From NCBI GenBank assembly GCA_964455555.1, contig CAYVXV010000004.1, forward strand, positions 7,771 to 71,770: a stretch of DNA of 64,000 bases, read 5' to 3'. Below the pieces are notes generated by a model, which saw only the letters and a program-made list of their open reading frames with translations, had not been told where the DNA came from and searched no databases. Numbering within the stretch: position 1 is the first letter of the stretch; each line of letters starts with the position of its first letter. This DNA is from an uncultured Pseudomonadales bacterium. GTDB taxonomy: Bacteria; Patescibacteriota; Microgenomatia; UBA1400; PJMF01. The translations under genes were made by a program, and so were the position numbers. This document shows positions 2,482-41,988 of the stretch, piece by piece.

Positions 2482-3683
2482 TGCCATATTTTAAATACAA
2501 AGTCAAAAATCAGTATAGCGACACCGTTTCAGGCAAGGTTGAAGCTGTCACAATTGAAGCAGCAGCAGCTGAGCTTTCCTCGCGCGGGCTGCTGGTTATT
2601 AATCTTCAGCCGCTATCAGATGACTCCTTTTCTGTCCTCAAGGGTGTCCTGATGGGTGTTAAGCAGGATGACATTGTTAACTTAACGCGTCAGTTAGCCA
2701 CTATGATTACTGCCGGCCTGCCCCTAGCCGGAGGCTTGTCGATCCTTGTACGCCAGAGCAAGGCCGAACTTTCCAGGTTGGTAGCCCAGATACTCCAGGA
2801 TGTTGAAGGCGGAACCTCTTTTAGCCAAGCCTTGGCCAAGCACCCCGACATTTTTTCCCGTCTTTATATTCAGCTAGTCAATGCCGGTGAGACTGGTGGT
2901 GTGCTGGACGAAGTGCTACAGCGGTTGGCAGACAACATGGAGAAATCCAAGGAATTTAAAGCCAAGACCAAGGGTGCAATGATTTATCCGATTATTGTGG
3001 TGCTGGCAATGGTGGCTGTAGGTTTTATTATGATGATTTTTGTTATTCCCAAGCTGACTGAAATGTACAAGGACTTCGATGCAGAGCTGCCAATGGCTAC
3101 CAGAGTGCTAATCGGCACCTCCAACTTTGTGACCCAATTCTGGTATATTTTTCTGATTGTTATTGTGGCCGGTGTTTATGGTCTTAAAAGATGGTACAAG
3201 ACTGAAAAGGGCGAGTTGGCGATTGATGGCCTAATTCTCAAACTGCCGATTATTGGGGTGCTGCGCCAGAAAATTATCCTGACAGAATTTGCCCGGACGT
3301 TGTCTCTGCTGCTTGGGGCGGGAGTTTCTTTGCTGCAGGCTTTAGAAATCGTTAATGAAGGCATAACTAATGTGGTTTACCGCAACGCTTTTAAGGAAGT
3401 TACCAACCAAGTTGAAAAAGGCATTTCCCTCTCAGAAGCCATGAGCCACTACGATATTTTCCCGCCTATCCTTTTCCAAATGATGAGTGTTGGTGAGGAA
3501 ACGGGCAAACTCGATGAAGTCTTGCTGAAAATGTCCACCTATTTCGAGCAGGAAAGTGAGCAAGCGGTCAAGAACTTAACCACTGCTATGGAGCCGATGA
3601 TTATGATTGTGCTGGGTGTAGGCGTAGGGGCGATGGTGATTGCTATAATTATGCCGATCTACAACTTGACCAGCCAATTTTAG
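2478..3683 (+). CDS. pilC: Type IV pilus platform protein PilC (GspF family)
   Basis: 401 aa; two GspF repeats each with TM helices; 4-nt overlap with pilT (translational coupling). Confidence 0.85.
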   Translation: MMPYFKYKVKNQYSDTVSGKVEAVTIEAAAAELSSRGLLVINLQPLSDDSFSVLKGVLMGVKQDDIVNLTRQLATMITAGLPLAGGLSILVRQSKAELSRLVAQILQDVEGGTSFSQALAKHPDIFSRLYIQLVNAGETGGVLDEVLQRLADNMEKSKEFKAKTKGAMIYPIIVVLAMVAVGFIMMIFVIPKLTEMYKDFDAELPMATRVLIGTSNFVTQFWYIFLIVIVAGVYGLKRWYKTEKGELAIDGLILKLPIIGVLRQKIILTEFARTLSLLLGAGVSLLQALEIVNEGITNVVYRNAFKEVTNQVEKGISLSEAMSHYDIFPPILFQMMSVGEETGKLDEVLLKMSTYFEQESEQAVKNLTTAMEPMIMIVLGVGVGAMVIAIIMPIYNLTSQF

Positions 3684-3795
3684 AAAAAGGCTGCCCAATC
3701 GCTCTGCACTAGGGGTTTACCACTTGCGGAGCCTAGAGATTTTAGTATAAATTAGTGTTACAGCCCTTTTTCGGCTATGAGCCTGTAATAATAGT

Positions 3796-4491
3796 GTGAG
3801 GAAACATATGAACCTGTCCAAGTCTTTTCTTCAAATCCTTGCGAAAGTGAGGCAGCATAACCAAAGTGCTGGATTTACAATGATTGAGCTCTTGATCGTG
3901 ATTGCCATTCTCGGAATTTTGGCGGTAGCGGTCCTGTCTGCCATTAATCCTATTGAGCAAATTAACCGTGGTCGGGATACCGGTTCAAGGTCAGATGCTG
4001 AGCAGCTTTTAAGCGCTGTGGACCGTTTCCACGCTTTCCAGGGTTACTATCCTTGGCAGACCGGGGTCAGTGATGTGAGCAATATCGAGGTTAACCCTTG
4101 GGTTCGGCTGACTAATGTTGCTGCCCTGGCTGATGCAAACGGTTGTAACATGCTGGAAAAACTCAGCTCTTTACCCAACACCAACGCCACCTGTACTACG
4201 GCTGCAAACGAGCTTAAAGGCAATTATGTGGATCGGGTCACCTCCAGTTCGTACAATAATCTGTACGTCTACCATGGCACAGGGCTAAGTGATTCCACCT
4301 ATGTCTGCTTCGCCCCTCAGTCCGATGCCTTCAAGCAGGAGGCCTTTGATAGACTAGACACAAACAGTGACGGCAATGTGGATGCTTCAGACAACATCCC
4401 AGCTGATTATCCGGCTGATGCTATAGATAATCCTACCTCAGGAAGTGACATCAACTGCGGTCCTGACGGCTACTGTGTCTGCTTGCCATAG
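3796..4491 (+). CDS. pilA: Type IV (major) pilin with class III signal peptide
   Basis: Prepilin cleavage motif QSAG/FTMIELLIVIAILGIL with Glu at +5; C-terminal Cys pairs; strong intrinsic terminator directly downstream, typical of a highly expressed major pilin. Confidence 0.75.
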   Translation: MRKHMNLSKSFLQILAKVRQHNQSAGFTMIELLIVIAILGILAVAVLSAINPIEQINRGRDTGSRSDAEQLLSAVDRFHAFQGYYPWQTGVSDVSNIEVNPWVRLTNVAALADANGCNMLEKLSSLPNTNATCTTAANELKGNYVDRVTSSSYNNLYVYHGTGLSDSTYVCFAPQSDAFKQEAFDRLDTNSDGNVDASDNIPADYPADAIDNPTSGSDINCGPDGYCVCLP

Positions 4492-4513
4492 CAAATTAAA
4501 AGTAGAAATTTAA

Positions 4514-4541
4514 CCCCCGCTCCGGCGGGGGTTTTTGTTTT
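4514..4541 (+). terminator. Rho-independent terminator after the major pilin gene
   Basis: CCCCCGC-tccg-GCGGGGG stem-loop followed by TTTTTGTTTT. Confidence 0.8.
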
Positions 4542-4612
4542 GCCAATTCTCTAGCGCCTCTCTGCTCTACCGACTTTCCCTCAGCCGACTTATCCTGTAG
4601 TATCATCTTAGT

Positions 4613-5431
4613 ATGATCACAGGCTGGTTTTTGTTCGGCGCATTGTTTCTTTTTGTTTTAGGGGCTGTCTTTGGCAGTTTTCTGAGTGTGGTAATCCTCA
4701 GGAGCATGCGCGGTGAGTCTTGGCTGGGCGGCTCTTCCAAATGTGACGAGTGCGGCGAGCCGATCCACTGGTATGACAACATTCCCCTGCTCTCCTTTCT
4801 TCTGCTCCGCGGCCGTTGCCGCAAATGCGCCAAGCCGATTCATCCCGTTCACTTTGTAGTGGAATTGCTGACCGGCGTGCTGTTTGTTTGGTGGTACTCC
4901 GGCTTTTTCCTTTTTTTCCAGCTGGCTGAGCAGCCTTTCCAAATTATCCAGCCGCTTTTCTGGCTGCTGGTGGCAGTGGTTTTGCTGGTTATCTTTTTTA
5001 CCGATCTCCTTTATATGATTATTCCCGACCAGGCTGTGGCGCTGCTTTTGGTGTTGGTTGTTGGCTACCGCCTGGCTCTTGTGATGGCCGGAATAATGCA
5101 GGTTGGAGACCTGGTGAACACGGTCCTGGCAACCGGTGTGGCTACCGCCGCTTTTCTGCTGCTGTTTTTTGCCACAAAACAACGGGGCTTTGGCTTTGGT
5201 GATGTAAAACTGATACTGCCGCTCGGGCTACTCCTAGGTTGGCCAAATACTTTGGTGGCGGTATTCTTATCTTTTATTTTTGGCGCCCTGGCTGGCATTG
5301 CCCTGCTTTTAGCAGGCAAACGCAAGCTGAAACAGCCTATCCCCTTTGGGCCATTCCTGATCATTTCTGGGTTTATCAGCCTTATCTGGGGTGAGGCGCT
5401 TTTCCGCTGGTATCTGAGCTTCATTTTTTAG
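4613..5431 (+). CDS. pilD: Prepilin peptidase / N-methyltransferase PilD (A24 family)
   Basis: Multi-TM protein; cytoplasmic tetra-Cys motif CDECGEP...CRKCAKPI; catalytic-Asp region FGFGDVKL. Confidence 0.85.
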   Translation: MITGWFLFGALFLFVLGAVFGSFLSVVILRSMRGESWLGGSSKCDECGEPIHWYDNIPLLSFLLLRGRCRKCAKPIHPVHFVVELLTGVLFVWWYSGFFLFFQLAEQPFQIIQPLFWLLVAVVLLVIFFTDLLYMIIPDQAVALLLVLVVGYRLALVMAGIMQVGDLVNTVLATGVATAAFLLLFFATKQRGFGFGDVKLILPLGLLLGWPNTLVAVFLSFIFGALAGIALLLAGKRKLKQPIPFGPFLIISGFISLIWGEALFRWYLSFIF

Positions 5432-5499
5432 CTGTCTATCAGAAAAATTCTAACATGTGCTTGTGTATCGAGTAGAAGGTGCGCTAAGATGTAGTAGAG

Positions 5500-6471
5500 A
5501 TGCGCATTATCAAGTACCTGCTCACTTTCTTCGCGCTGATCCTCCTTTTAGGCGTAGGTAGTTTTTTTATTGCCAGGGAAGTGTTTTTATTCTGGGGTTC
5601 AACAACTGTAATCGAGTCGCTCAAGGAGCTAAAGTCGGCTTCGATTAGCAATACATATGAACTGGAATGCGCCCGCCGGGGAGGCGGAACTGCTCCTGTT
5701 TCTTCCGGCAGTAATGTGGTAACTCAGCTCAGGTTCCTTTCTTCAACAGAATATGTCCTTGAAGCAGTCTGCGATCAGTTTCCCCAAAGCCCAATCTTGA
5801 TAAGGCAGCAGACCTTGCCAATGTTTATTACCAAAGTGCCGGGCACCTCTGGATTCATCTGGCGGGAATTTCATCAGTCCGGCATCGAACTGGCGGTTTT
5901 TTCTGACTTAGCAAGTTCACTAAAAGACTATTTTAAGTTTGACCCGGTTGCGTTGGTTAAAACTAAGGGAATAATTGTTGATGACCGGGTGATTGTGAGC
6001 GGAGGCTCGGTTGGCCTTCCTCTCTCTGAGGGCCCTTCAACTACCTGTGAAGGCTATGGTTATTTTTGCTGTGACCAGAATGCCCAAATGGGTTCTGGCA
6101 GCCAGGTGGTGGGTTTAGACAGCTGCCCGGACCGCTGTTATTCTGCCTGCGTGGCTAGACCGATGGTGCTATCTTTTAACAGCAACCCATTTTTTGATGT
6201 AAAAACCCGCGTGGTGACCATTCAGGACGGCGAGACGGTGGAGTTCCGCTATGTGGCTAGCAGCGATGCCCAGGAATTGCAGGCAACCATTGATTTTGGC
6301 GACGGCAAACAGGCTTATATTGTGGGTACTCAAGGAAGTTCAGTCCACAACTACAATTGCGACCGGGCAAAGTGCAGCTTCAGCGCCAGGATTCTTTTGC
6401 GGGATTTATGGGGAGTTGAATCTATTCCTACGCCAATCTCGAAGATTGGTGTAGAGGTTATTAAGCAATAA
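5500..6471 (+). CDS. Hypothetical Cys-rich membrane-anchored protein encoded inside the pilus locus
   Basis: N-terminal TM helix; 323 aa; many Cys (CEGYGYFCCDQ..CPDRCYSAC); no recognisable family; sits between pilD and the minor pilin array. Confidence 0.45.
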   Translation: MRIIKYLLTFFALILLLGVGSFFIAREVFLFWGSTTVIESLKELKSASISNTYELECARRGGGTAPVSSGSNVVTQLRFLSSTEYVLEAVCDQFPQSPILIRQQTLPMFITKVPGTSGFIWREFHQSGIELAVFSDLASSLKDYFKFDPVALVKTKGIIVDDRVIVSGGSVGLPLSEGPSTTCEGYGYFCCDQNAQMGSGSQVVGLDSCPDRCYSACVARPMVLSFNSNPFFDVKTRVVTIQDGETVEFRYVASSDAQELQATIDFGDGKQAYIVGTQGSSVHNYNCDRAKCSFSARILLRDLWGVESIPTPISKIGVEVIKQ

Positions 6472-7422: not shown

Positions 7423-7941
7423 ATGTATAAGCTGCCCGTCCGCACCTCTGGCTTTACCTTAATAGAACTCTTAGTAGTGGTAGCTATTTTGTTGATTATT
7501 ACCGGTGGCAGCATCGCCGCTATGATTAGGTTTAATGACAAGCAAAGAGTGCAGTTGGGCATTCAGGAGATTCAGTCATTTATCCAAGTGGCCCAAGCTA
7601 AAGCCAGGGTAAGGGAGATTCCCGGCGGTACAACCTGCAATTCCCTGCAGGGTTACCGGGTACAGAAAAGCGGTTCAACTTTGCAGATACACTCCAACTG
7701 CAACAATGGTGCCGGCAGTGTTTACACTTTAAGCCAGACCCACTTTATCCCTGTCAACCTTACGGTTACGCCTGACAGCTTTTCGGTAGAATACAGGACT
7801 CTTTTTGACGGGGCTGAACTGAGAGTGAACAACACGGTAGTTGCAGATTTTGAGGTCCGGGCAGTCAATTCAACTGGAACTTTTGCTTTTAGTTTTGAAA
7901 TTGATGGGAATGGCATTATGCATAAGCCGGTGCAGGAATAA
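7423..7941 (+). CDS. Minor type IV pilin-like protein
   Basis: RTSG/FTLIELLVVVAILLII, Glu+5; 172 aa. Confidence 0.7.
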   Translation: MYKLPVRTSGFTLIELLVVVAILLIITGGSIAAMIRFNDKQRVQLGIQEIQSFIQVAQAKARVREIPGGTTCNSLQGYRVQKSGSTLQIHSNCNNGAGSVYTLSQTHFIPVNLTVTPDSFSVEYRTLFDGAELRVNNTVVADFEVRAVNSTGTFAFSFEIDGNGIMHKPVQE

Positions 7942-8435: not shown

Positions 8436-8992
8436 TTTCTAAGTTGAATATTCGAAGTAAATTTTTCCAATGGACCTATGGCGTTGCCTGAGTCGCTAGA
8501 AGCTTGCATAGTAAAAGAGACTGTCACAAAGATTTTGCTGCCAGCTGCTGTGCACCTAAACAAAGCCGGTGAATCGGCTATCACGGATGAAGAAGTAATT
8601 CTGTTTAGGTCATGCAAAATTACGCTGCTAAATACCAGCCGGAAAGAATTTCGGTTTCCGCTGGGGTCTTCCACCATAAGATAGTTTGAGCCGGCTAGGC
8701 ACTCATCTAAATTAACCACCATTTTTGCATTACGGATATAGTAGTCCATTGTTTTTAATGCTTGATTTCCTTCGGTGGAAATCCGTTTTCTAAAAGTCAT
8801 GCTGGAATTGCCGATAATAAAGGTTAAGAACATGGCTGAAACTGTCAGAAACAAGATGGTTACCAGTCCTGTGGCTATGAGCATTTCGATCAGTGAAAAG
8901 CCGTTTTTCACGCGGCTGGAGGCTGCAGAAATAAGGCTTCTGAAGCGCTGTGATGCAGCTGCGGAATGGTGGTTAGGCTTGCACTTAATCAT
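8432..8992 (-). CDS. Pilin-like protein co-transcribed with the giant surface protein
   Basis: VKNG/FSLIEMLIATGLVTILFL class III signal, Glu+5. Its start overlaps the end of the 1388-aa gene by 8 nt, and its 3' end overlaps the convergent plus-strand minor pilin by 4 nt. Confidence 0.6.
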   Translation of the reverse strand: MIKCKPNHHSAAASQRFRSLISAASSRVKNGFSLIEMLIATGLVTILFLTVSAMFLTFIIGNSSMTFRKRISTEGNQALKTMDYYIRNAKMVVNLDECLAGSNYLMVEDPSGNRNSFRLVFSSVILHDLNRITSSSVIADSPALFRCTAAGSKIFVTVSFTMQASSDSGNAIGPLEKFTSNIQLRN

Positions 8993-11900
8993 TAGTTTGC
9001 TGCCAGACTACATCGGATTGCAAAATGGACGTCGGAGCATTTTTAAGGAAATCAGGCCGGTAGATAAAGACTTCCGTTGGGCTGGTATTGTGGAAAGCCC
9101 TTCCTAGTTCAGAATCATCAAAATCCCTGTTCAGCGAAACACTATTCCAGCCTACAAAACTGCCTGCCCCAATGAACTTGAGGTCAGTGGTTGAGCTGTT
9201 GTTGTCACTCTGAATAATGATGTTATTGGCAACATACACACCTTCAATATTTGCTTGGGTCCTGGGGTTATTGCTGGCAGTAATTCGGTGGCCGACATTT
9301 TGGTTGATATTAATGTTGTCCCTGACAATGAAGGCTAGGAAACCGCCCGAGGCTACCCTAATTAAACGCTCGTTGTCCGGTGTAGTGCCGCTAACACCAT
9401 CATCATCGCGGATAGTCAGGCTGCCGTCTACAAAAATAATGTACTTCTCATTGTTGGGAATCTGCCACCTTTGGGAGGCATTGGGGCTGATAGTAAGGTC
9501 TCCCTCAGTGGCAAAAATGCGGGTGGTCTTGCCGTCAGCTTCAGTGAAGTTTATTGAATATTGTGAACCAAGGTTGGTGAGCTGGGTTTGTTGGCTGTGG
9601 TCTGTGTTGGCAGGAATTTTGGTCAAGCTACTAAGGTCGTACCTAGTGCTCATAACAGTATAGTTTTCTACCGGCGCTGCACCAAAGTTAAGGTTGCGCC
9701 CGCGCCTTTCGGGGAAATTGGTTGGATTGGTTTGCCGCTGGGTCCAGCGGCTACTTGAACTGACAGAAGATGCGCCGGTTAAAGGCATGCCGGCAGTGGC
9801 AACATCAGAAACCCCCGAGGCATTAATGCCGAAGTATGGTGTGCAGGCTGATCCGGTACAGAGAGAAGTATCCGGAATGCTATTGGTGCCAAACCCTGTG
9901 CCGGCATAGAAAAGGCCGTTGGTGACCTGCCACCAAGGGTCATTAGCTAGGTTGTAGCGTTGTAGATAGAAGTTAGTGGATCCTGGTGAAGTTATGTTAT
10001 TTGACCTGGTGCAGTTGGTCAAACTGCTACCGCGGTTGCAAGGGGCGCAGACCAAAGTATCTGCGGGGTTGGGGTTGTTGATTCCAAGAGTAAGGATGAT
10101 ATTTCTGGTCCATGAGCTTGGTGCGTATGGATAGTTGTTCAGGCCGTAAGTCTGACCGCTGACACCCGAGCTCATATTACCCAGAGAGCCGATAACGCTG
10201 TTGGTTGCGTTAAGTGTTGAACCCGATTGCAAACCTGGGTTGACCAAGCCCTGAGCGTTGCCTGTACAAGTGTTGTTGGCATCAAGCACAAAGTTACCGG
10301 TTATGTTACCAGTCAAGTTAAAGTCCTCAGTCCTCCATGGAGTGGGTTGAAGGCTGCAGGTGTTGTTAACCGCCCGCACCGATACTCTCATCCGAAAACC
10401 ATGGGTTGCTGATGGTGTATATAGCTGTGATAGCGTGCTGGCAGAAACAACGGTGCAGTATTGGTTGGTTGCACAGTTGAATGATCCTGAGGTAAGTCCG
10501 GGGTTGACAGTTTGCGGGTAGATGGCAACCTCATAATTATTTGTCCTAGTTCCGCCGCTGGTCCAGTTGATTTGGACACGCTGGTCGGCATCTCCAGTCA
10601 TATTCACGTTGGTTCCTACCCTGCTTGGGGAACTAAAGCTAATTGTTGGTGTAGTCGGTACGCCAGAGTCAGTGTTGGCACAGGTGCCGCCACAGCCGTC
10701 CGGCTGGCCGCAGGCATTGGTGCAAGTGGGCGAACAAGTTACATTGATGGTTTTATTGTCTGCATTGCTGCAGGAAGTCCAGCCTGTACAAGAAGTGGTG
10801 CCCCCTTCATACGTGCAATTTGGATTACCGCTGCATTGATCGACATCACCGGGCATCTGGCAGAAGACGTTGTAAGTACCAGTGGTAGCCAGCCCGGGCA
10901 TGTTTATTGTCGAATTGCACAGGCCGGTAGCCGGGTTGGTGGTGCAACCTGTAAAGCGGTAATAGTAGATGTTGCCTGCTGAGTCATAAACCTCGGTGGA
11001 ACCTGCTGGTGTGGGAATAATCCTAGTATTGTTTTGGCGTTTTAGATAAAGTTGTGTCACTCTTCCGGCACTTAACCCTGGTTCTATCGAACCATTGACC
11101 GTTACCGGAATCTGAGCGTTTTGCTGATAATTGGTTGAGGTGGTGGAGACAGTACAGCTTTTTTTCTGGCCGCATTGGAATGGACCGTAGCTGCCGGTGC
11201 AGAGAGGCTGATCACTGAATGGATCGACAATTTGCACACTATATCCGTTGTATTGTCCGGGAGCCCATTGTTTGCCGGCGTCAAGTGTAGCAGTGCTGAA
11301 TTCACCGAAGCACTGAGCGCCCCAACAATAACCCATAGTTCCCGGTATCCAGCGGTAGTGATCCCAACGGCTGTCGGTTCCGCTAGGTGGATAGTTGGTG
11401 CCTGGACGCCAGCCGCCATCCACTGAATCATCGTAGTTTATCCTGAGAATGTGTCGGCTAGCATCTTCCTGACGTGGCCAGTAAAAGGTGCCGCTCTCAC
11501 GAGTACATAGAGGAGGTGGGGCTGGTTGGTCTGGGGAGATATAAAAAGGACTGGCACAGCGGTTTTCACGCCAGCCACCGTCATCACCCGGCCGCCAAAG
11601 GTTTGCTTGGGCAATAAAAGTGCCTTTGCCGTCTGCATCCACAGCCCGCAGTGCCGGGTCGTTGACAATGCTTGCCAAATTAATATTGCCGGAAAAGCTG
11701 TGTTGTGCGGGTCCTTCCGTTCCTTCAGGAGACAAATTAAATGTCTTGCTCCAAGATGTACCCTTTTTTACTACTGTGATACTGGCTTGATAAGCAAAAC
11801 TAGTGTCGGGAACCCTGACATTTAGGTCACCATAGTAACCACAGGCAGGTGAAGAAATAACCACTCCTTGGTTTCCACAGTTATAAAGGCCTTCCGGAGC

Positions 11901-13151
11901 AAATTGGCAACAGTCGTTGCTCCAACAAATGGACTTTCCGGTGCTTGAGTCACATGGTGTAGTACTGCCGCAGACACCTGGGTTGTCATGGCAGTTGGTG
12001 CCGCAGTTGGCATCGTGACAGGCTGGCGGTGGTGTGGCTCCCGGGGCACACTCCTGTTCTATCCAAGCCAGGCATGATTGATAGGTGGAGCGGCAAGCGT
12101 TGATACAGCCACCGCAATAAGTGGTGCCGGCTGGGCAGCCACCACCTCCACCACCGCTTGGGGGAGGCTGTTCCCATGAGCAGGTGTTAAAGAGTGGGTC
12201 TGGGCAAAAGCCGCTGCCACAGGTTGCGCCTTGAGCGTAGCAAGCGTCGGGAGAAGAGGAGCCGCCAGAGCAGGTAGACTGGGAGTAGCCTGCAGTGGTG
12301 TTACCATCGCAGATGGCTACTGATTGACAGGTGCCTGAACTACAACCGACCGTGGTCCCTGGTGAAGGACACCAACTGCCATCGGGACATCTATATGAGT
12401 ATGAGATATAAACACATGCCCATTTTCCACTACAGGCTGCATAGGCACTAGGTACAGTAAACATGCTTTTAAAATTTTGTATATATGTGTTAAAAAATGA
12501 TGATAGTCCTACCGGCTCAAGAGTAAAAAGTAAGCCCTCTGCATCTTGAAACTCAACCACTTTTTGCACTGAGGCAGTAATCATTTCATTATCTGTTAGA
12601 TTGCCACCGGCGCTTAAAAGCAAGATCTCATTGATGCTAAAAGTCCATACCATGGTCACTGTTTCTAGTGACTCACCTTCAAGCAGTTTGGGAAAGTCCT
12701 CCGACGAATAATAAATGCTGTAAACTAATGCCTGTGATTCGTTATCATAGTCTGCAGTGAAGCCACTTACGAACCAGTTGTTACTTGAACTCTGATGCAT
12801 AAGCTGAACATCTGGAGATTTTTCCCTATCTAAATAGCGAAAATAGATTTCTTTTGGAGTAATTCTTTGTGTACCTTCAAAGAGTAGAAATTCTGGCTCC
12901 TCTCTATATCCATGCTCATCAATCATTTTTGTTAACAGACTTTGATTCAATGAGTCGGATTGGATTTTGTAGAGAGGAAAATCAGAATTAATATGAATAT
13001 CTATTGAACCACTTTTAGTCTTATAGGTAAATCGTTCACCCTCTAAAGAGATTTGAGCAAGTTGTTGTTTCCAGATTAAAAATCCAGCAACTATTGAGGC
13101 GGCTAAAATAATAAAAATGACAACTAATCTGAGCAATTGAGGTTTCTGCAC
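8985..13151 (-). CDS. Giant (1388 aa) membrane-anchored Cys/Gly/Thr/Asn-rich surface protein; candidate pilus-associated adhesin
   Basis: N-terminal signal-anchor LLRLVVIFIILAASIVAGFLIW; central region extremely Cys-rich with a GGGGGG tract; low-complexity T/S/N/G repeats; C-terminal region with beta-helix-like NI/NN repeats; operonic with a pilin-like gene. Confidence 0.55.
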   Translation of the reverse strand: MQKPQLLRLVVIFIILAASIVAGFLIWKQQLAQISLEGERFTYKTKSGSIDIHINSDFPLYKIQSDSLNQSLLTKMIDEHGYREEPEFLLFEGTQRITPKEIYFRYLDREKSPDVQLMHQSSSNNWFVSGFTADYDNESQALVYSIYYSSEDFPKLLEGESLETVTMVWTFSINEILLLSAGGNLTDNEMITASVQKVVEFQDAEGLLFTLEPVGLSSFFNTYIQNFKSMFTVPSAYAACSGKWACVYISYSYRCPDGSWCPSPGTTVGCSSGTCQSVAICDGNTTAGYSQSTCSGGSSSPDACYAQGATCGSGFCPDPLFNTCSWEQPPPSGGGGGGCPAGTTYCGGCINACRSTYQSCLAWIEQECAPGATPPPACHDANCGTNCHDNPGVCGSTTPCDSSTGKSICWSNDCCQFAPEGLYNCGNQGVVISSPACGYYGDLNVRVPDTSFAYQASITVVKKGTSWSKTFNLSPEGTEGPAQHSFSGNINLASIVNDPALRAVDADGKGTFIAQANLWRPGDDGGWRENRCASPFYISPDQPAPPPLCTRESGTFYWPRQEDASRHILRINYDDSVDGGWRPGTNYPPSGTDSRWDHYRWIPGTMGYCWGAQCFGEFSTATLDAGKQWAPGQYNGYSVQIVDPFSDQPLCTGSYGPFQCGQKKSCTVSTTSTNYQQNAQIPVTVNGSIEPGLSAGRVTQLYLKRQNNTRIIPTPAGSTEVYDSAGNIYYYRFTGCTTNPATGLCNSTINMPGLATTGTYNVFCQMPGDVDQCSGNPNCTYEGGTTSCTGWTSCSNADNKTINVTCSPTCTNACGQPDGCGGTCANTDSGVPTTPTISFSSPSRVGTNVNMTGDADQRVQINWTSGGTRTNNYEVAIYPQTVNPGLTSGSFNCATNQYCTVVSASTLSQLYTPSATHGFRMRVSVRAVNNTCSLQPTPWRTEDFNLTGNITGNFVLDANNTCTGNAQGLVNPGLQSGSTLNATNSVIGSLGNMSSGVSGQTYGLNNYPYAPSSWTRNIILTLGINNPNPADTLVCAPCNRGSSLTNCTRSNNITSPGSTNFYLQRYNLANDPWWQVTNGLFYAGTGFGTNSIPDTSLCTGSACTPYFGINASGVSDVATAGMPLTGASSVSSSSRWTQRQTNPTNFPERRGRNLNFGAAPVENYTVMSTRYDLSSLTKIPANTDHSQQTQLTNLGSQYSINFTEADGKTTRIFATEGDLTISPNASQRWQIPNNEKYIIFVDGSLTIRDDDGVSGTTPDNERLIRVASGGFLAFIVRDNININQNVGHRITASNNPRTQANIEGVYVANNIIIQSDNNSSTTDLKFIGAGSFVGWNSVSLNRDFDDSELGRAFHNTSPTEVFIYRPDFLKNAPTSILQSDVVWQQTND

Positions 13152-13197: not shown

Positions 13198-15459
13198 TTA
13201 TTTTATTGCTCTGAGTTGTCCATCTAATTTTCGTTCTAACTGCCCCTGAATGGTGTTCTCATACCAAGCACCCTCATCTCGTGCTTCCTCTGCTGGCCAA
13301 GCTCCATCATTTAATCCAGGAATTTCAGCATATTCGCGAAGGGCTTGCTGAGCCTGTGGGGAAAAAGATAAGGATTGAAGAGTTAATAGAGGAAGGAATG
13401 GAAAGACATCACTCCTTGCAATTCCTGGCTGTTGAGATGGAAGTCTTACCACTATGAAGTATTTTTCGTTCTGCTGATCTATAACAGGAGTAAAGGCGAT
13501 GACACTAGAAGAGCCTCCTTGTTTGAGCCACAGGTTAATCTCAGCACCTTCTGCTTGGATTTTAATAGTATTGGGTCTCGCTCGATCGTAGGTGGTTCCA
13601 ATATCAACATAAATAGGGATAACTTCCTGAACAGGCAGTTCAACCTCCACATAGTTTCCCGTTTCACTGTCATAGCCGTAAACCATCCGAGTTGGCGTCT
13701 GACCTTGTTCTTTAAGATTTTTAACTTCCTCCATGTAATCACGAGCTTCTTGAATAAATTCATTAATATCTTTTTGCTTGAGATCCTCATCATTAGAGCG
13801 AACAACTCCGAGATAGTTCATTCCAATAACAAAATCTCGAAGATTTTGAGGTTCAAGTTTTCCAAGACTAGTTTTAGTATACTGAAGCATTTCTAAATCT
13901 AAGCCGCTAACCTCTGCATCATTAAACGATGACAACAATCGAATATCCACGCCAGTAAATTCAGGAGTTAACTCCACTTCATCTCCATTTTCATTGACGT
14001 AAACAAACGGATAAGGCCTACTGATTGCATCTAAAATTTCTTTGGCACTCATACCTTCAATGATTTCCCTGACTTCAACAAAGGTTGTTTCACCTGTTTC
14101 CGGCACCTCCGTTGCCGGTGGTGTAGTTGCTTCAGGTGTTGGTGGAACTGGAGAAGGTGTTTCTTCTGCTGCCGGAGTTACCGTTGGTGCAACCTGCAGC
14201 TGTTCGTCTTCGACCACATCCCGCCACTGGCCGTACTCATCAACCACTTGCACAACTACTCCATCCTTAATCCGTACTGACCTGCCCAGGGCACTTTCTA
14301 CTGCTACCCTATCTGCTTCTCCCGGAGTCAATGCCATAGCTTCGCCCTCATGCCCTGGTGTATTGGATATCCTCCAGGTGTAATCTCGGCCATAGGTTTG
14401 ATCGCCGGCGGTGATAATTGTGCCCTCAGCAACACTGACAAGATTTACAATGGTGCCATTGGCTAGGACAAACTGCTCTACGCGCACTGAAGGGCTGGTG
14501 CCCTCGGGTGACAAATAGACAATGCCTAGTTCCCCCAATTGGCGCAGGGTTTCCTCAGCGCTCTCTTGAGCCTGCTGCAGCTCTTCCCCTTCCAGGTTTT
14601 GGTTGATTATTTCAAAATCCGGTAGGTCGGTAAATCGCTGCCAGCCTTCGGGGGGCTGTTCACCGCCGCCTTCCGAAGTTGGTTCTAACTCAGGCGTTGT
14701 AGCTGGTGGTGCCTCTGTGGTTACGCCAATTGTGGGTTGGTTGTTTTCTGGCTCTACTGCCCTGCCATCGGAGCAAGCGCCGAGGGCAATAGTGGCACCA
14801 AGCAGGAGGGCTGAGATGAGCAGCCTAGCCCTTCTTAATCCCAATTTCGCTTTATTTTTAGCAGGATCCTCGTCTTGAGATTCACTCTGCTCTCCTTCAG
14901 CTTCTTCCGCTGCTGCTGCTCTAATTGCCTCCGGAGTTGTGCCCGACTCTGTAGCGGCAAACTCTATGGTCCTGATGAAAACTACACTATCAGGCAAACC
15001 CTCCGCCTGAAGTCTTTCAATCAGCCCCATTTCCTCTAGTGTGTCTATATACCCGCGAACAAAATCTTCAACCGGCAGGTGATCCTCAATTGATTGCGCT
15101 TCTAGTTTTGCAACTGCTTCTTCTAGTTTTGCATAGGCTTCGACAGTCATCAGTGGAAGCCTAATGCCTCTTTTTGCTTCAGCATACTCTGCTGTAAGCC
15201 GGATATCTGTTTCTTTGTCGCCCTCTTTATCAAGCTCAGCTATCTGCTCACCAGGTTGTAGGCTTTCCATTGCTGCAGCAAAAGGGCTAAGGTTGCCCAT
15301 GGTCTCACCCAAGTTCATTGGCTGAGGATCAACATAGCCGGGTTCTGGTCTGGCTCCGCTCAATGCTTCACGGGCACCTAAAAATCTTGGAGTCCTGGCT
15401 TCACTGTCTCCTCTTGCTTCTATTGAGAGGGGTGGATTTTGCTCTTTGGTTTCTGCCAT
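13198..15459 (-). CDS. Hypothetical exported/membrane protein with acidic N-terminal region and Pro/Thr/Glu-rich linkers
   Basis: 753-aa ORF; an internal RRARLLISALLLGATIALGAC segment looks like a lipoprotein signal with lipobox LGAC; PT-rich linkers (PTVTPAAEETPSPVPPTPEATTPPATEVPETG). Confidence 0.4.
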   Translation of the reverse strand: MAETKEQNPPLSIEARGDSEARTPRFLGAREALSGARPEPGYVDPQPMNLGETMGNLSPFAAAMESLQPGEQIAELDKEGDKETDIRLTAEYAEAKRGIRLPLMTVEAYAKLEEAVAKLEAQSIEDHLPVEDFVRGYIDTLEEMGLIERLQAEGLPDSVVFIRTIEFAATESGTTPEAIRAAAAEEAEGEQSESQDEDPAKNKAKLGLRRARLLISALLLGATIALGACSDGRAVEPENNQPTIGVTTEAPPATTPELEPTSEGGGEQPPEGWQRFTDLPDFEIINQNLEGEELQQAQESAEETLRQLGELGIVYLSPEGTSPSVRVEQFVLANGTIVNLVSVAEGTIITAGDQTYGRDYTWRISNTPGHEGEAMALTPGEADRVAVESALGRSVRIKDGVVVQVVDEYGQWRDVVEDEQLQVAPTVTPAAEETPSPVPPTPEATTPPATEVPETGETTFVEVREIIEGMSAKEILDAISRPYPFVYVNENGDEVELTPEFTGVDIRLLSSFNDAEVSGLDLEMLQYTKTSLGKLEPQNLRDFVIGMNYLGVVRSNDEDLKQKDINEFIQEARDYMEEVKNLKEQGQTPTRMVYGYDSETGNYVEVELPVQEVIPIYVDIGTTYDRARPNTIKIQAEGAEINLWLKQGGSSSVIAFTPVIDQQNEKYFIVVRLPSQQPGIARSDVFPFLPLLTLQSLSFSPQAQQALREYAEIPGLNDGAWPAEEARDEGAWYENTIQGQLERKLDGQLRAIK

Positions 15460-37102: not shown

Positions 37103-37642
37103 CTAAGACTTTTTGGCTGGCATGAGTTGGGCGATGAGTTTTTTGCCCATTATTTTCGGTGGCATTTCTACAGTTGAAATATCTGCAGTGCTTTCGAAAA
37201 CTTTTTCGAACATCTCGTAGCCGAACTCTTTTTTAGTGATTGCCCTGCCTTTAAAAAGCAGGCTAAGGCGTACTTTATCACCTTTTTCTAAAAATTGGCG
37301 GACCTTTTTAAGCCTGGATTGGAAGTCTGCTTCACCCATGAAAGGTGTGAACCTGACTTCTTTTATTTCCTGAGCCTTGGCTTTTTTGCGGCTGGCTGCT
37401 TCTTTTTGTTGAACCTGGTATTTGTATTTTGCAAGTTCAATGATTTTTGCAATCGGTGGGTTGGTAGTTGCAGTGACAAGAACCAGGTCCCTGTCTGTTT
37501 CTTTTGCCTGGGCAATCGCGTCCCTAGTGGACATGATGCCGACTTGTTCGCCTGTTTCGTCGATTACTCTTACCTCTGCTGCCCGAATGTACTGATTGTA
37601 GGCAACCCGTTTGCTTCTATTGTATTGATTTGGTCTAGCCAC
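37103..37642 (-). CDS. infC: Translation initiation factor IF-3
   Basis: IRAAEVRVIDETGEQVGIMSTRDAIAQAKETDRDLVLV; conserved infC-rpmI-rplT order. Confidence 0.85.
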   Translation of the reverse strand: MARPNQYNRSKRVAYNQYIRAAEVRVIDETGEQVGIMSTRDAIAQAKETDRDLVLVTATTNPPIAKIIELAKYKYQVQQKEAASRKKAKAQEIKEVRFTPFMGEADFQSRLKKVRQFLEKGDKVRLSLLFKGRAITKKEFGYEMFEKVFESTADISTVEMPPKIMGKKLIAQLMPAKKS

Positions 37643-37839
37643 TTTTTGTTACTATCCTTTCTCTGGTTTCTACGTGTAGACGGGTGGAATTATACCGTAC
37701 TTTGATTTTTTAACAAAGCAACAACCCCGTGTTTTTCAGAAAAAATATTATATCAAATTATTATGTTTCCAGCCAGGGAGAGATTGGGGGCGGTGGTTTG
37801 GCGCTCAAGCGGACTGATATGTCAAAAAACTATTGAAAA

Positions 37840-37848
37840 TGATATAAT
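37840..37848 (+). promoter_or_regulatory. Candidate extended -10 promoter (TGaTATAAT) upstream of the high-GC gene
   Basis: TGATATAAT at 37840-37848 in an AT-rich spacer; could instead serve the divergent infC operon. Confidence 0.25.
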
Positions 37849-37923
37849 AATAATAGTTGACAAGCTCTTTAAAAACCCGTGTGCCGGTCAAAAGCCGGCG
37901 CACCAAACAAATGGAGACTGGAA

Positions 37924-38685
37924 ATGCGTAAGAGCATCGTCCTTTTACTCGTAGCCCTGTTAATTCTGGGCAGCGCGGCCATTGTGGCCGCGAGCGGCGC
38001 TAGCACGCCTGTATCCGATGGGGGGGTCACCCCCTACATTATTGACGGAGCGAACCACGGTGGCAATCGCACCTGCGAGGAAGTAGGCATCGCCTTTTTT
38101 GGCGACGCGAGCTACTACGAATTCAGTAGCTACCGCGTCAATTACGACGAAGGTGTCTTTGACGCCAGCTTCCCCGCTGGCCTGACGGTGGACACCGACG
38201 GCACCTACGTGTCGTGGTCGTCAACGTTCGGCATCGGCGCTGCTATAGTCAAAGGCAGCAATGACGCCAATGTCTACGTGTACGAGCCCCAGTGGCTCGG
38301 AGACAGCGGCTTGGCTGCTCCGCCCAACGCGAGCGGCAATCCGGCAGGTCTCAGCAACTTAACCTTCTGCTGGAACCCGGAGCCGGATATGGGCCAGTGG
38401 TGCTCGCCAGGATACTGGCGCCAAGAGCATCATCTGGATTCCTGGGAGGCCACCGGTTTTAGCCCGGATGACCTCTTCAGCGACGCGGTAGGGTACGATG
38501 TTACCCTCTCCACCAAGGGCGTGAAGGACGGTGCCGAAACCGATCCGACGCTCTGGGAGGTTCTGCAGTCGCCGCAATGGTACGGCGGCGGCGACTTCAA
38601 CGCAGTGGGCGATCTCCTCAGCGCTGCGCACCCTGATGTAGATTTTCAGGGTGAACGCGTCGAGGACAGCTGCCCGCTCAACTAG
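37924..38685 (+). CDS. Secreted hypothetical protein encoded by a compositionally foreign (about 59% GC) gene
   Basis: Signal peptide MRKSIVLLLVALLILGSAAIVAASG; RBS GGAGA 7 nt upstream; GC-rich codons (GCC/GGC/GAC) against a 45-47% GC background. Confidence 0.6.
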   Translation: MRKSIVLLLVALLILGSAAIVAASGASTPVSDGGVTPYIIDGANHGGNRTCEEVGIAFFGDASYYEFSSYRVNYDEGVFDASFPAGLTVDTDGTYVSWSSTFGIGAAIVKGSNDANVYVYEPQWLGDSGLAAPPNASGNPAGLSNLTFCWNPEPDMGQWCSPGYWRQEHHLDSWEATGFSPDDLFSDAVGYDVTLSTKGVKDGAETDPTLWEVLQSPQWYGGGDFNAVGDLLSAAHPDVDFQGERVEDSCPLN

Positions 38686-38751
38686 TGCCAGAGCAGAGGC
38701 AGGCCAAGGCGGCCTAAGCCTCTGGTTTGACACAGCCCGCTTGTCAACTAA

Positions 38752-38784
38752 GGCCACACCCTAACAGGTGGGGCTTTTTCTTTG
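38752..38784 (+). terminator. Possible terminator after the high-GC gene
   Basis: CCACACC-ctaaca-GGTGGGG imperfect stem followed by CTTTTTCTTTG. Confidence 0.3.
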
Positions 38785-38830
38785 TCTGCCAACTGCTATA
38801 CTAACAATTCATAAAAATCCAGAAATAGCC

Positions 38831-39121
38831 ATGAAAACAGAATACATTCAACCCGGCATTGAAAAGGGATACGGTTATACTAGAAACGAAGAAACCGGGA
38901 TAATCCAGTTAACCAGCAAGACATTTCAGCAAATTTTTCAGTTATGCCAAGCTATGGAGGCTGGGACTTATCATATTCCTTTGGCAGAAAAAACAGTCGG
39001 GAGCGGCAGGATCAATGCAGTTACAGACCGCCTCAATGACATGGGCCTAGGCAAAAGCTTTTCTGTGATTGAAGCCTCGCACCGGCATGTGATCATAGCT
39101 TGCGTAATTGACAGCAAGTAG
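38831..39121 (+). CDS. Hypothetical small protein
   Basis: 96 aa from MKTEYIQPG; normal GC; no family recognised; the longer ORF start at 38768 overlaps the putative terminator. Confidence 0.35.
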   Translation: MKTEYIQPGIEKGYGYTRNEETGIIQLTSKTFQQIFQLCQAMEAGTYHIPLAEKTVGSGRINAVTDRLNDMGLGKSFSVIEASHRHVIIACVIDSK

Positions 39122-39171
39122 CCGTATATTCAAAATTTCAAATAAAAAATGCCCTTGCGGACATTTTTCTG

Positions 39172-39245
39172 TGAACTCGAGAGGACTCGAACCTCTGACC
39201 TCTTCGATGTCAACGAAGCGCTCTAACCAACTGAGCTACGAGTTC
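39172..39245 (-). tRNA. tRNA-Val (anticodon GAC)
   Basis: Cloverleaf read on the minus strand: acceptor GAACTCG/CGAGTTC, D-arm GCTC-AGTTGGTTA-GAGC, anticodon loop TTGACAT, T-arm AGAGG-TTCGAGT-CCTCT; CCA not encoded. Confidence 0.85.
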
Positions 39246-40088: not shown

Positions 40089-41108
40089 TTACAGCTTGAT
40101 AAGGAAGTCAACCACTTTTTGGCGTTTGAGGGTTTGGCGGACCAAAGCGCGGTATTGTTCACTTTTCATTTGCTCGCCTCTAATCTTTTCATCCTCGATT
40201 TTGTTAATTTGTTCATCGACGTCTTTTTCATCAACCTCTATACCCTCTTTCTGAGCAATGGCGTTAAGGATAAAAGTGAGCTGAAGCCTGCCGATAGCCT
40301 CTACAGCCAGTTGAGAAGAAAGCTGCTCAAAGGTCATACCCCGCTGCTGCAGGAAGGTTTCGATGGAAAAATTCATACTCTCAAGCCTGCGGGCTAACTG
40401 GTCCAGATCGTAGCGGACTTCCTCTTTGATTAAAAGTTCCGGAATGGCCGGGCCATGCTTCTCTATCAAGCCTTGGTAGATGTGATGAAGTTCATGATCT
40501 TTTGTCTGCTCTTCTGTGGGCTCAGCTGCCACTTGTGGGGCTGATTTATCTTCTTTGCCATCCTTGCTTCCTGAATCTTGCTTGGCCGCTTTTTTGGCTG
40601 CCTCACGGCGTTCTTTGGCCTGTTCTGCAAGATGAGCAGCCGCTTCTTTTTTAGCTGCTTTAATTACTGCGACGTAACCCTTGAGTTCAATCTGAGGAGA
40701 CTCGGCTATATGGGCTTCCAGCACCCAGTCGCCGCCTTTATCTAATTTGAGCGGCTTGAATTCTGGGTGGGCAAGCGGCTCCTTCTTTTCAGCTTTAATA
40801 GCCTCTGAATACTTATCGGGGACAAGCATCTGCAAAGCCTGGTCAATGATTTCAGCAGCACCGATTTTTTCTTCTGCGAGCTTGGTTGGAGCTTGGCCTT
40901 TGCGGAAACCGGCTACTACAACTTTATTTTTCAGCTTGTTAAGGACTTTGTCGTAAGCCTTAGCTGCTTCATCGGCTGGAATGGTGATGGTTAAAATTGT
41001 GTTGGGAGCGATCGGGATTTGCTTTTCCTGCGCACTGTCTTTTTTAGGTTTGGTTTTTTTGGTTTGGGTCATAACTGGTGCATTATATACTCCAGGCAAA
41101 AATTTCAC
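40089..41108 (-). CDS. tig: Trigger factor (short form lacking the PPIase domain)
   Basis: Ribosome-binding signature VAGFRKGQAP (GFRxGxxP) in the N-domain; TF C-domain-like helical region; real start probably MTQTKK (41072). Confidence 0.65.
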   Translation of the reverse strand: MKFLPGVYNAPVMTQTKKTKPKKDSAQEKQIPIAPNTILTITIPADEAAKAYDKVLNKLKNKVVVAGFRKGQAPTKLAEEKIGAAEIIDQALQMLVPDKYSEAIKAEKKEPLAHPEFKPLKLDKGGDWVLEAHIAESPQIELKGYVAVIKAAKKEAAAHLAEQAKERREAAKKAAKQDSGSKDGKEDKSAPQVAAEPTEEQTKDHELHHIYQGLIEKHGPAIPELLIKEEVRYDLDQLARRLESMNFSIETFLQQRGMTFEQLSSQLAVEAIGRLQLTFILNAIAQKEGIEVDEKDVDEQINKIEDEKIRGEQMKSEQYRALVRQTLKRQKVVDFLIKL

Positions 41109-41169
41109 AAACTCGGCTCCACTAGTATGCTACAATGGCGCTTGTTCTCATATAAATCAAAAGGAAAAC

Positions 41170-41988
41170 ATGACGGATACAGTGCTTCTCCATCATCTTG
41201 ATGATTACAAAGCCGGCGGTTTGGAATTTGCCGAAATTGCCACCAGAATTTACAACCACTTAGATCACCCCGCACAAGTTAAACTGCATGAAACATCCGT
41301 GCCTCCCCTGGACACTATGGCACTGGGTTTTGTGACCGGCCAGTTGGCTTTAGCCCCTTTTGAGGGAAAGATGTTTATCTACGGCAATTGTGCCCCCAGG
41401 AGAACAAGCGAAAAAGCCAGAAAAAACAACCGGGATCATGGCATCAAGTATGCCAAACTTAAAAACGGAGTTGAAATAATCAATGTCTGGTCTGAGTATG
41501 CCTTCGGTTTTGTAAAAGACCAGGTTGTTAAATACTATGACATTAATTGTCCAGCCGAAGGTTCCCAGTTCCGTTCCAGAGACTTTTTTCCTCAAGCAGT
41601 TGCAGAAATTATCAATGGCGATTATAGCCGGCTGGGCAAAAAATTGGACCCCGAGGACATTCCGGATATTCCCAACGATGAGGTTTCCTGGACCGACGGT
41701 TTTGGCAATATCAAAACCACTATGAGGATGTCAGATCTTGAAGCCCGGGGATTTAAGACTGGCCAGCAAGTGCAGGTAATCCTGAATGACGTCAGTATGC
41801 TCGGGGTGGTAACGGTCGGCGGTTTTCAAGTCGACCGCGGCGTATTGGCTGTGAACGCCGGCTCATCTGGTTATGACGATCCGTATATAGAGTTGTTTCT
41901 AAGAGTGCATAAAATGTCAGAAAAGCCGGCGGCGGAGCGGTTCGGCCATCCGGTCGGCGGCACAAAATTTGAAATTAAGCCGCTTTAA
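41170..41988 (+). CDS. SAM hydroxide adenosyltransferase-like (DUF62 / fluorinase-chlorinase superfamily) protein
   Basis: FRSRDFFPQAVAEI resembles the FHGRDIFAPVAAHL family motif; about 270 aa two-domain size; start taken at the ATG with RBS AAAAGGAAAA, not the longer ORF that overlaps tig. Confidence 0.4.
   Translation: MTDTVLLHHLDDYKAGGLEFAEIATRIYNHLDHPAQVKLHETSVPPLDTMALGFVTGQLALAPFEGKMFIYGNCAPRRTSEKARKNNRDHGIKYAKLKNGVEIINVWSEYAFGFVKDQVVKYYDINCPAEGSQFRSRDFFPQAVAEIINGDYSRLGKKLDPEDIPDIPNDEVSWTDGFGNIKTTMRMSDLEARGFKTGQQVQVILNDVSMLGVVTVGGFQVDRGVLAVNAGSSGYDDPYIELFLRVHKMSEKPAAERFGHPVGGTKFEIKPL

Follow-up and report, generated by a model that had tools for sequence, protein, structure and literature searches.

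How did a gene of about 60% G+C content (GC) come to stand in a genome of about 46% GC, and by which route did it enter? The question is raised by a coding sequence (CDS) on contig CAYVXV010000004.1 of GenBank assembly GCA_964455555.1, which we examined within a window of 64,000 nt (positions 7,771 to 71,770 of the contig, forward strand). An earlier note, made from the letters alone, had read the locus as a single-gene island for a secreted protein, acquired horizontally, with a nearby tRNA-Val as a likely integration site and, should the organism be an episymbiont of them, high-GC Actinobacteria as a possible source. We looked for four marks of horizontal acquisition: a deviation in composition and codon usage, absence of the gene from the orthologous site in relatives, a deviation that is not intrinsic to the gene family, and an identified donor. 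The first three were found, and there is good support for a recent transfer in which one gene, encoding a secreted protein, was gained; a role of the tRNA or of Actinobacteria is not supported.

The CDS (37924..38685, plus strand; 762 nt, 253 aa) has a GC of 0.605 and a GC at third codon positions (GC3) of 0.728, against a GC of 0.462 for the window outside the CDS and a window GC3 of 0.48, in line with the contrast of about 59% to 45–47% first reported for it. In 750-nt sliding windows over the 64 kb (mean GC 0.464, standard deviation 0.031), the maximum of 0.612 lies at 37951-38700, and the second-highest, unrelated peak reaches 0.549. The 300-nt profile steps from about 0.39 to 0.58–0.61 near 37900, keeps this level across 37900-38800 and returns to 0.43–0.47 near 38800; with 0.39–0.47 on both sides, the neighbours have normal GC, as had been stated. 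Among 53 non-overlapping open reading frames (ORFs) of at least 100 aa, the gene is the sole outlier, with z-scores of 4.4 for GC and 4.3 for GC3, the runner-up having a GC3 z-score of 2.2. It also ranks last of the 53 in codon-usage fit to the other ORFs, although its z-score there is only −2.0 because the codon bias of the host is weak; GC3 is the sharper statistic. Both compositional checks proposed in the earlier note, by sliding window and by codon adaptation, thus single out the same gene.

A lineage-wide compositional outlier, that is, a family with high GC wherever it occurs, is ruled out by the homologues in nine other genomes, which match the GC of their hosts. In these, the gene departs from the GC of its host by −0.067 to +0.016, compared with +0.143 in the window, and the extremes are a 45%-GC copy on a 48%-GC contig and a 65%-GC copy on a 65%-GC contig. 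Regression of gene GC on host GC across the nine genomes gives r = 0.91, and the window copy stands 5.9 residual standard deviations above the line. Since the GC of the homologues tracks that of their hosts, membership of the family does not account for the high GC.

To locate the orthologous site, we searched with translation initiation factor 3 (IF-3), encoded by infC, the left neighbour of the gene. Relatives were found at 79%, 75–77% and 71% identity (L011/L012 at 79%, L013/L014 at 75%, L015 at 71%). In L011/L012, L015 and L025/L026, the gene order is trigger factor, DUF5660, tRNA-Val, a small ORF, infC, rpmI, rplT, Wzy and a penicillin-binding protein (PBP), and the gap between the small ORF and infC is 199, 173 and 183 bp, respectively, compared with 1188 bp in the window. 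The gene for the 253-aa protein is absent from the syntenic site in these three sister lineages. Comparison of presence and absence among sister genomes, another of the checks proposed at the outset, therefore comes out, together with the GC pattern of the family, on the side of horizontal acquisition. No second copy was found in the sister loci L011 to L015, the sister genomes being seen in part only. A 96-aa ORF to the right of the gene in the window is the orthologue of the small ORF of the sisters (42% identity to that of L011), and is therefore native and outside the island.

The small ORF (91–108 aa) always lies between tRNA-Val and infC (window 38831-39121, L011:7526-7801, L025:8506-8817, L013:2317-2643) and has no Pfam match. 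It evolves very fast, with 24–42% identity between genomes whose IF-3 is 71–79% identical to that of the window.

The contig is metagenomic, and the composition and codon usage of the gene resemble those of Chloroflexota-like genomes, as would be seen if a fragment of a co-occurring high-GC organism had been misjoined in assembly or binning. We regard the chance of such an artefact as negligible. An independent Logan assembly (SRR9016294, L001) reproduces both junctions. Furthermore, the insert is a complete gene unit placed exactly within an intergenic region, with synteny resuming on both sides, and a double chimeric join sparing native and foreign genes alike is improbable. An analogous island in a relative (L013, described below) is likewise present in both an NCBI and a Logan assembly (SRR31189355, L014).

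The features of the locus are as follows (positions in the window).

37103..37642, minus strand: infC (IF-3), the native left neighbour, read away from the island; Pfam IF3_N/IF3_C, orthologues 71–79% identical in syntenic sister contigs.
37819..37848, plus strand: promoter-like site, ATGTCA and TG-n-TATAAT separated by an 18-nt spacer, in AT-rich native sequence directly 5' of the left junction; consensus scan, 10 of 12 matches, extended −10.
37854..37865, no strand: inverted repeat, left arm, TAGTTGACAAGC; repeat search.
37861..38795, plus strand: foreign insert of about 0.93 kb, from the GC profile and the empty sites in sisters; its junctions are approximate, to about ±15 nt, the closest empty-site relative having an IF-3 identity of only 79%.
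37879..37903, plus strand: GC-rich stem-loop in the 5' untranslated region (UTR), 10-bp stem, GUGUGCCGGU-caaaa-GCCGGCGCAC; RNA fold of 37850-37930, −25 kcal/mol, z = −3.5.
37913..37916, plus strand: ribosome-binding site GGAG, 7 nt 5' of the ATG; read from the sequence.
37924..38685, plus strand: CDS of the 253-aa secreted protein; ORF, 489 homologues, alignment, AlphaFold2.
38359..38757, minus strand: spurious antisense ORF of 132 aa, due to GC bias; wholly antisense to the conserved CDS.
38739..38750, no strand: inverted repeat, right arm, GCTTGTCAACTA; repeat search.
38759..38783, plus strand: intrinsic-terminator-like hairpin followed by a T-run; from the sequence.
38831..39121, plus strand: native 96-aa ORF between island and tRNA; 42% identical to the 91-aa ORF of L011 in the equivalent position, normal GC.
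39171..39245, minus strand: tRNA-Val(GAC), its 3' end toward the island without adjoining it; ARAGORN, Rfam 72.9 bits.

Alignment of the intergenic DNA with that of the sisters places the left junction directly after ...ATAATAGTT, at about 37860, and the right junction at about 38790-38800, ahead of the TATACT box of the small ORF. The insert is a single complete gene unit, comprising 5'-UTR hairpin, ribosome-binding site, CDS and terminator; the terminator-like hairpin, being still GC-rich, probably belongs to it. The spurious antisense ORF is present, as first described. The sequence around the promoter-like site aligns to the intergenic region of L011 and L025, and this site probably drives the acquired gene. 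Judging from this arrangement, promoter capture is plausible, with the acquired gene being read from a native extended −10 promoter outside the left junction.

Where the gene came from was approached through its family, which is patchily distributed over several phyla. Homologues numbered 489 in a 90%-identity collection and at least 1669 representative clusters (clusters at 50% identity, E <= 1e-3), most matches being metagenome contigs; the closest non-self protein is 79% identical. A search of genome_contigs and metagenome_contigs with peptide patterns, which proved too specific, yielded two useful loci and two distant ones within the limits of the scan. The named holders are Methylicorpusculum, Syntrophobacteraceae, Leptolyngbya, Chloroflexi/Anaerolineales, Saprospiraceae and Patescibacteria, and named and inferred holders together represent at least six phyla (Chloroflexota, Cyanobacteria, Proteobacteria, Desulfobacterota, Bacteroidota and Patescibacteria). 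None of them is actinobacterial. The only high-GC holder that was classified, L004 (a 65%-GC contig with a 72% identical homologue), belongs to Chloroflexota/Anaerolineae by its ribosomal protein S4, and the suggestion of an actinobacterial donor or host is thus not upheld. The GC and GC3 of the window copy imply a source genome of about 62% GC. Relative synonymous codon usage of the acquired gene correlates poorly with that of native window genes (r = 0.13), as against r = 0.75 with the genes of a Chloroflexota contig and 0.72 with those of L019, both contigs with close homologues. With a best protein match at 79% and a best DNA match at about 71% identity, the donor is not among the sampled genomes; a Chloroflexota-like organism is a candidate that would agree with the data.

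The recipient, for its part, had been likened to the Saccharibacteria. It is a member of the Patescibacteria: among named organisms, those with the most similar IF-3 are 'Patescibacteria group' and 'Candidatus Pacebacteria' (about 63–65% identity, with about 63% for the latter), and there is no indication of a saccharibacterial identity.

No gene neighbours of the family are conserved across the homologue loci. OmpR-type response regulators adjoin the homologue in the higher-GC genomes L004 (10882-11610) and L022 (1493-2203); they are 41% identical to each other, lie in differing orientations and may hint at regulated expression in donor-like lineages. In Leptolyngbya sp. BL0902 (CP046155.1, L006:10001-13691), the family occurs in a tandemly duplicated two-gene module, in which a family member of 240 or 257 aa is followed each time by a 174-aa protein without Pfam match. 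The 174-aa protein may be a functional partner of the family member, and its gene recurs only in Leptolyngbya, not being conserved in the other genomes. The homologue in L008 is 66% identical and at native GC; tblastx, by which L008 might have been assigned to the Patescibacteria, gave only generic PBP similarity.

The product itself fits the earlier description of a protein with a clean signal peptide and no recognisable domain. By inspection, the N-terminal residues MRKSIVLLLVALLILGSAAIVAASGAS are ordered as in a signal peptide, with n-, h- and c-regions (MRK, then SIVLLLVALLILGSAAIV, then AAS), and the alignment shows a hydrophobic N-terminus kept in 45 homologues. No match was found in Pfam, and NCBIfam gave only a sub-threshold 12-bit match to the signal-peptide region. 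Likewise, PHROGs and curated families and solved folds returned nothing above threshold, and a sequence-profile search of the PDB found nothing. AlphaFold2, run on a 45-sequence alignment, produced a model with a mean predicted local distance difference test (pLDDT) score of 90.6, a helix at residues 3-16, and a layout of signal peptide (residues 1 to ~24), beta-sandwich (~28-155) and helical C-terminal domain (~157-253). The model resembles solved or viral structures no further than generic beta-sandwiches. Two cysteines of the beta-sandwich domain, C51 and C149, are invariant; the helical domain, which is highly conserved, contains C160 and C250 and the motif WCSPGYWRQxHHLDSW...AHPDVNFxGERVEDSCPLN. 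The product is thus predicted to be a Sec-exported, disulfide-stabilised protein of two domains, and within its C-terminal domain the conserved residues H171, H235 and D238 might bind a metal.

Each of the two domains also occurs alone, the N-terminal one at the start and the C-terminal one at the extreme end of proteins of up to 1238 aa with SpaA/prealbumin-like, SdrD-B, DUF11, DUF7507 and Big_3_5 repeats. Such a repeat-stalk architecture is typical of cell-surface proteins. All of them have signal peptides, as has the 253-aa protein, whose two modules occur in them separately at the N-terminus or the extreme C-terminus. By analogy with these repeat-stalk surface proteins, the protein is most likely an extracellular module for binding or adhesion.

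How, then, did the gene enter? The earlier note had pointed to the tRNA-Val(GAC) about 0.5 kb away as a classic integration site. The distance is right, with 486 nt between the stop codon and the tRNA, and the 3' end of the tRNA faces the island. The locus could accordingly be the remnant of an integrase-mediated island that entered at this 3' end and whose integrase and attachment (att) sites have decayed, and in the relative L013 a variable segment does begin exactly at the 3' end of tRNA-Val, that end being repeated over 19-22 nt at a distance of 143 nt downstream and the 5' part being repeated upstream. In the window, however, the native 96-aa ORF, which has normal GC and the same position in all sisters, separates the tRNA from the island. 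No second copy of the tRNA 3' end exists in the window, even when 16-nt and 24-nt probes were allowed up to 3 mismatches; only the tRNA itself matched, and a repeat search found no direct repeat of it. Neither an integrase or transposase nor an integrase pseudogene was found in the insert, which holds one CDS without Pfam or NCBIfam match between flanks of syntenic housekeeping genes and which, at about 0.93 kb, has no room for an integrase. Wholesale decay of att sites is itself unlikely because the GC of the island has not drifted toward that of the host. None of the three marks of a tRNA-targeted island (an integrase, a distal direct repeat, a tRNA 3' end abutting the island) was therefore observed, and the likeness to tRNA-associated islands is limited to anomalous composition and the facing 3' end. 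The idea of a decayed tRNA-Val island is largely refuted by the intervening native ORF, and we consider it very improbable. Searches of viral_contigs, INPHARED phages and PLSDB plasmids likewise gave no match that would indicate a phage, plasmid or viral vector.

A second possibility arises from the repeats at the edges of the island. A perfect 12-nt inverted repeat (37854-65 / 38739-50) brackets the high-GC gene; in 1500 random segments, a bracketing repeat of at least 12 nt occurred once and none was longer, and among 176 genes of 10 loci, this is the longest gene-bracketing inverted repeat. Passenger genes enclosed by inverted repeats of the insertion sequence (IS) type without a transposase are on record as mobile insertion cassettes, whose cargo in Xanthomonas includes a lytic transglycosylase (PMC4337579, which also cites MIC231). 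The window gene could belong to a transposase-less element of this kind, moved in trans, or it could have been captured at the tip of a native palindrome, the inverted repeats being the signature of insertion in either case.

The island of the relative L013 bears on this reading too. L013 (NCBI GCA_964515115.1, CAZESB010000003.1) and L014 (the Logan assembly SRR31189355 mentioned above) both show an island of about 3 kb (~3120-6125) that lies, like the one in the window, between the small ORF and infC and has a GC of 0.59 compared with 0.46 in the rest of the contig. Its cargo is a 575-aa M23 peptidase and SLT transglycosylase with transmembrane segments, together with a 313-aa Cys-rich protein. 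The site is empty in L025, a close relative of L013. A perfect 17-nt inverted repeat, CAAGTACATGAAATCAG / CTGATTTCATGTACTTG (3097-3113 and 6128-6144), which extends to 22/24 nt with a 2-nt bulge, brackets the island exactly at its GC boundaries. Since L013 and the window are each occupied, DNA of about 60% GC has entered this site on at least two occasions.

Both islands thus resemble mobile insertion cassettes in carrying passenger genes without a transposase gene, short perfect inverted repeats and secreted or cell-wall-acting cargo, and the lytic transglycosylase of L013 parallels that of the Xanthomonas cassette. Unlike such cassettes, neither island shows a target-site duplication (outside the window arms, ATAATAA and AGGCCAC share no repeat), the island is single-copy in the window, and the arms are just 12 and 17 nt long and related neither to each other nor to any IS identified; no related IS element or transposase was seen. 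Although the island flanks of the window and L013 share the 11-mer AAGCTCTTTAA and a GCCGGTC..GCCGG motif, their local alignment scores fall inside the upper tail of shuffles, no better than chance, and homologues in ten other loci have only chance-level repeats of 7–10 nt. In addition, the arms may be partly native, since TAGTT, the 5 nt at the outer end of the left arm, resembles native sequence in comparison with L011, and about 45 nt of GC-rich terminator lie beyond the right arm. The window island therefore agrees only partly with the definition of a mobile insertion cassette, in that a passenger gene lies within inverted repeats without a transposase but lacks the duplication of the target. 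We judge an origin as such an element, or by capture at a palindrome tip, to be unlikely. The inverted repeats may be the ends of a cassette or the arms of an older palindrome or, in the case of the window, a coincidence. Pairing of the arms in RNA is also conceivable, as the left arm would fall at the 5' end predicted for the mRNA and the right arm in the 3' UTR, ahead of the terminator.

A bolder extension would make the region between the small ORF and infC a dedicated capture site for transposase-less cassettes of about 60% GC, bracketed by inverted repeats and carrying exported or cell-wall-acting cargo. This would imply an undescribed mechanism, either palindrome-tip capture or a passenger-only mobile cassette, with DNA possibly derived from the organism on which the symbiont lives; we hold it to be quite unlikely. 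The recurrent site and the bracketing repeats are the only elements that could be new, and two cases are too few for a claim.

The partial duplicates of tRNA-Val in L013 lie at 2017-2047 (the 5' part, 74 nt upstream of the gene) and 2295-2316 (the 3'-end copy, AGTCCTCTCGAGTTCACAA, 143 nt downstream). An att-like duplicate of this sort, as found in tRNA-associated islands, is present only in this relative, and it marks tRNA-Val as a past site of integration within the clade, but not as the one used by the window island. The hot-spot idea consequently survives in part: the interval from tRNA-Val to infC is variable in the clade, but tRNA-Val is not the entry point here.

In the explanation that we prefer, a DNA fragment was captured illegitimately (without homology) at a site prone to recombination. 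About 0.93 kb from a donor of roughly 60–62% GC would have been inserted into the AT-rich divergent promoter region between infC and the small native ORF, later than the divergence from the sampled relatives and too recently for its GC to have drifted visibly toward that of the host, and the captured gene unit would be read from the native promoter outside the left junction. Taken as a whole, with a recent insertion, illegitimate capture and a secreted two-domain product, this account is probably right. Several points weigh against it. The perfect 12-nt inverted repeat around the island (p about 1e-3) would not be expected from plain illegitimate recombination. The donor was not found, the nearest DNA, at about 71% identity, being similar within the CDS only. 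The partial view of the sister genomes leaves room for a copy elsewhere in them, and the junctions, read against an empty-site relative with 79% IF-3 identity, are fixed only to within the ~±15 nt given above. Finally, the function is read from domain neighbours, with no fold, Pfam or PDB match beside them.

Three further ORFs of the window lie apart from the island. Those at 8985-13151 (minus strand, 1388 aa) and 13198-15459 (minus strand, 753 aa) have no Pfam domain and a strongly uneven composition inside each gene, with 400-nt GC from 0.35 to 0.59. The third, at 40981-41988 (plus strand, 335 aa), is situated between trigger factor and tRNA-Cys. Pfam gave no match for it, and in NCBIfam it faintly resembles fluorinase/SAM-hydroxide adenosyltransferase-like proteins (E = 0.085).

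Horizontal transfer into genomes of the Patescibacteria, or Candidate Phyla Radiation (CPR), is well documented: hundreds of events have been described, amounting to up to 13% of genome length, with donors often from other phyla and single genes included (PMC12455944). Like these, the window island is a foreign gene in a streamlined genome, detected by composition and phyletic pattern. It goes beyond them in that a single 0.93-kb gene unit is resolved against an empty sister site, the GC contrast (+0.14) is unusually large and undrifted, and the same site is independently occupied in a relative. The window island is thus a well-resolved new instance of a documented process.

The genomes of Patescibacteria are tiny, and these bacteria are dependent on other cells. 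The genes for exported proteins that they acquire are therefore candidates for attachment to, or exploitation of, their partners. The present locus is an unusually clean case, with an empty site in relatives, an undrifted GC contrast and a complete unit that apparently borrows a native promoter. Its cargo family is widespread yet described in no database, and the 65–80% identity between members from different phyla is a high value for secreted proteins. If the pattern of site and inverted repeats holds widely, it would point to a recurrent mechanism of insertion in CPR genomes and could help in identifying their hosts.

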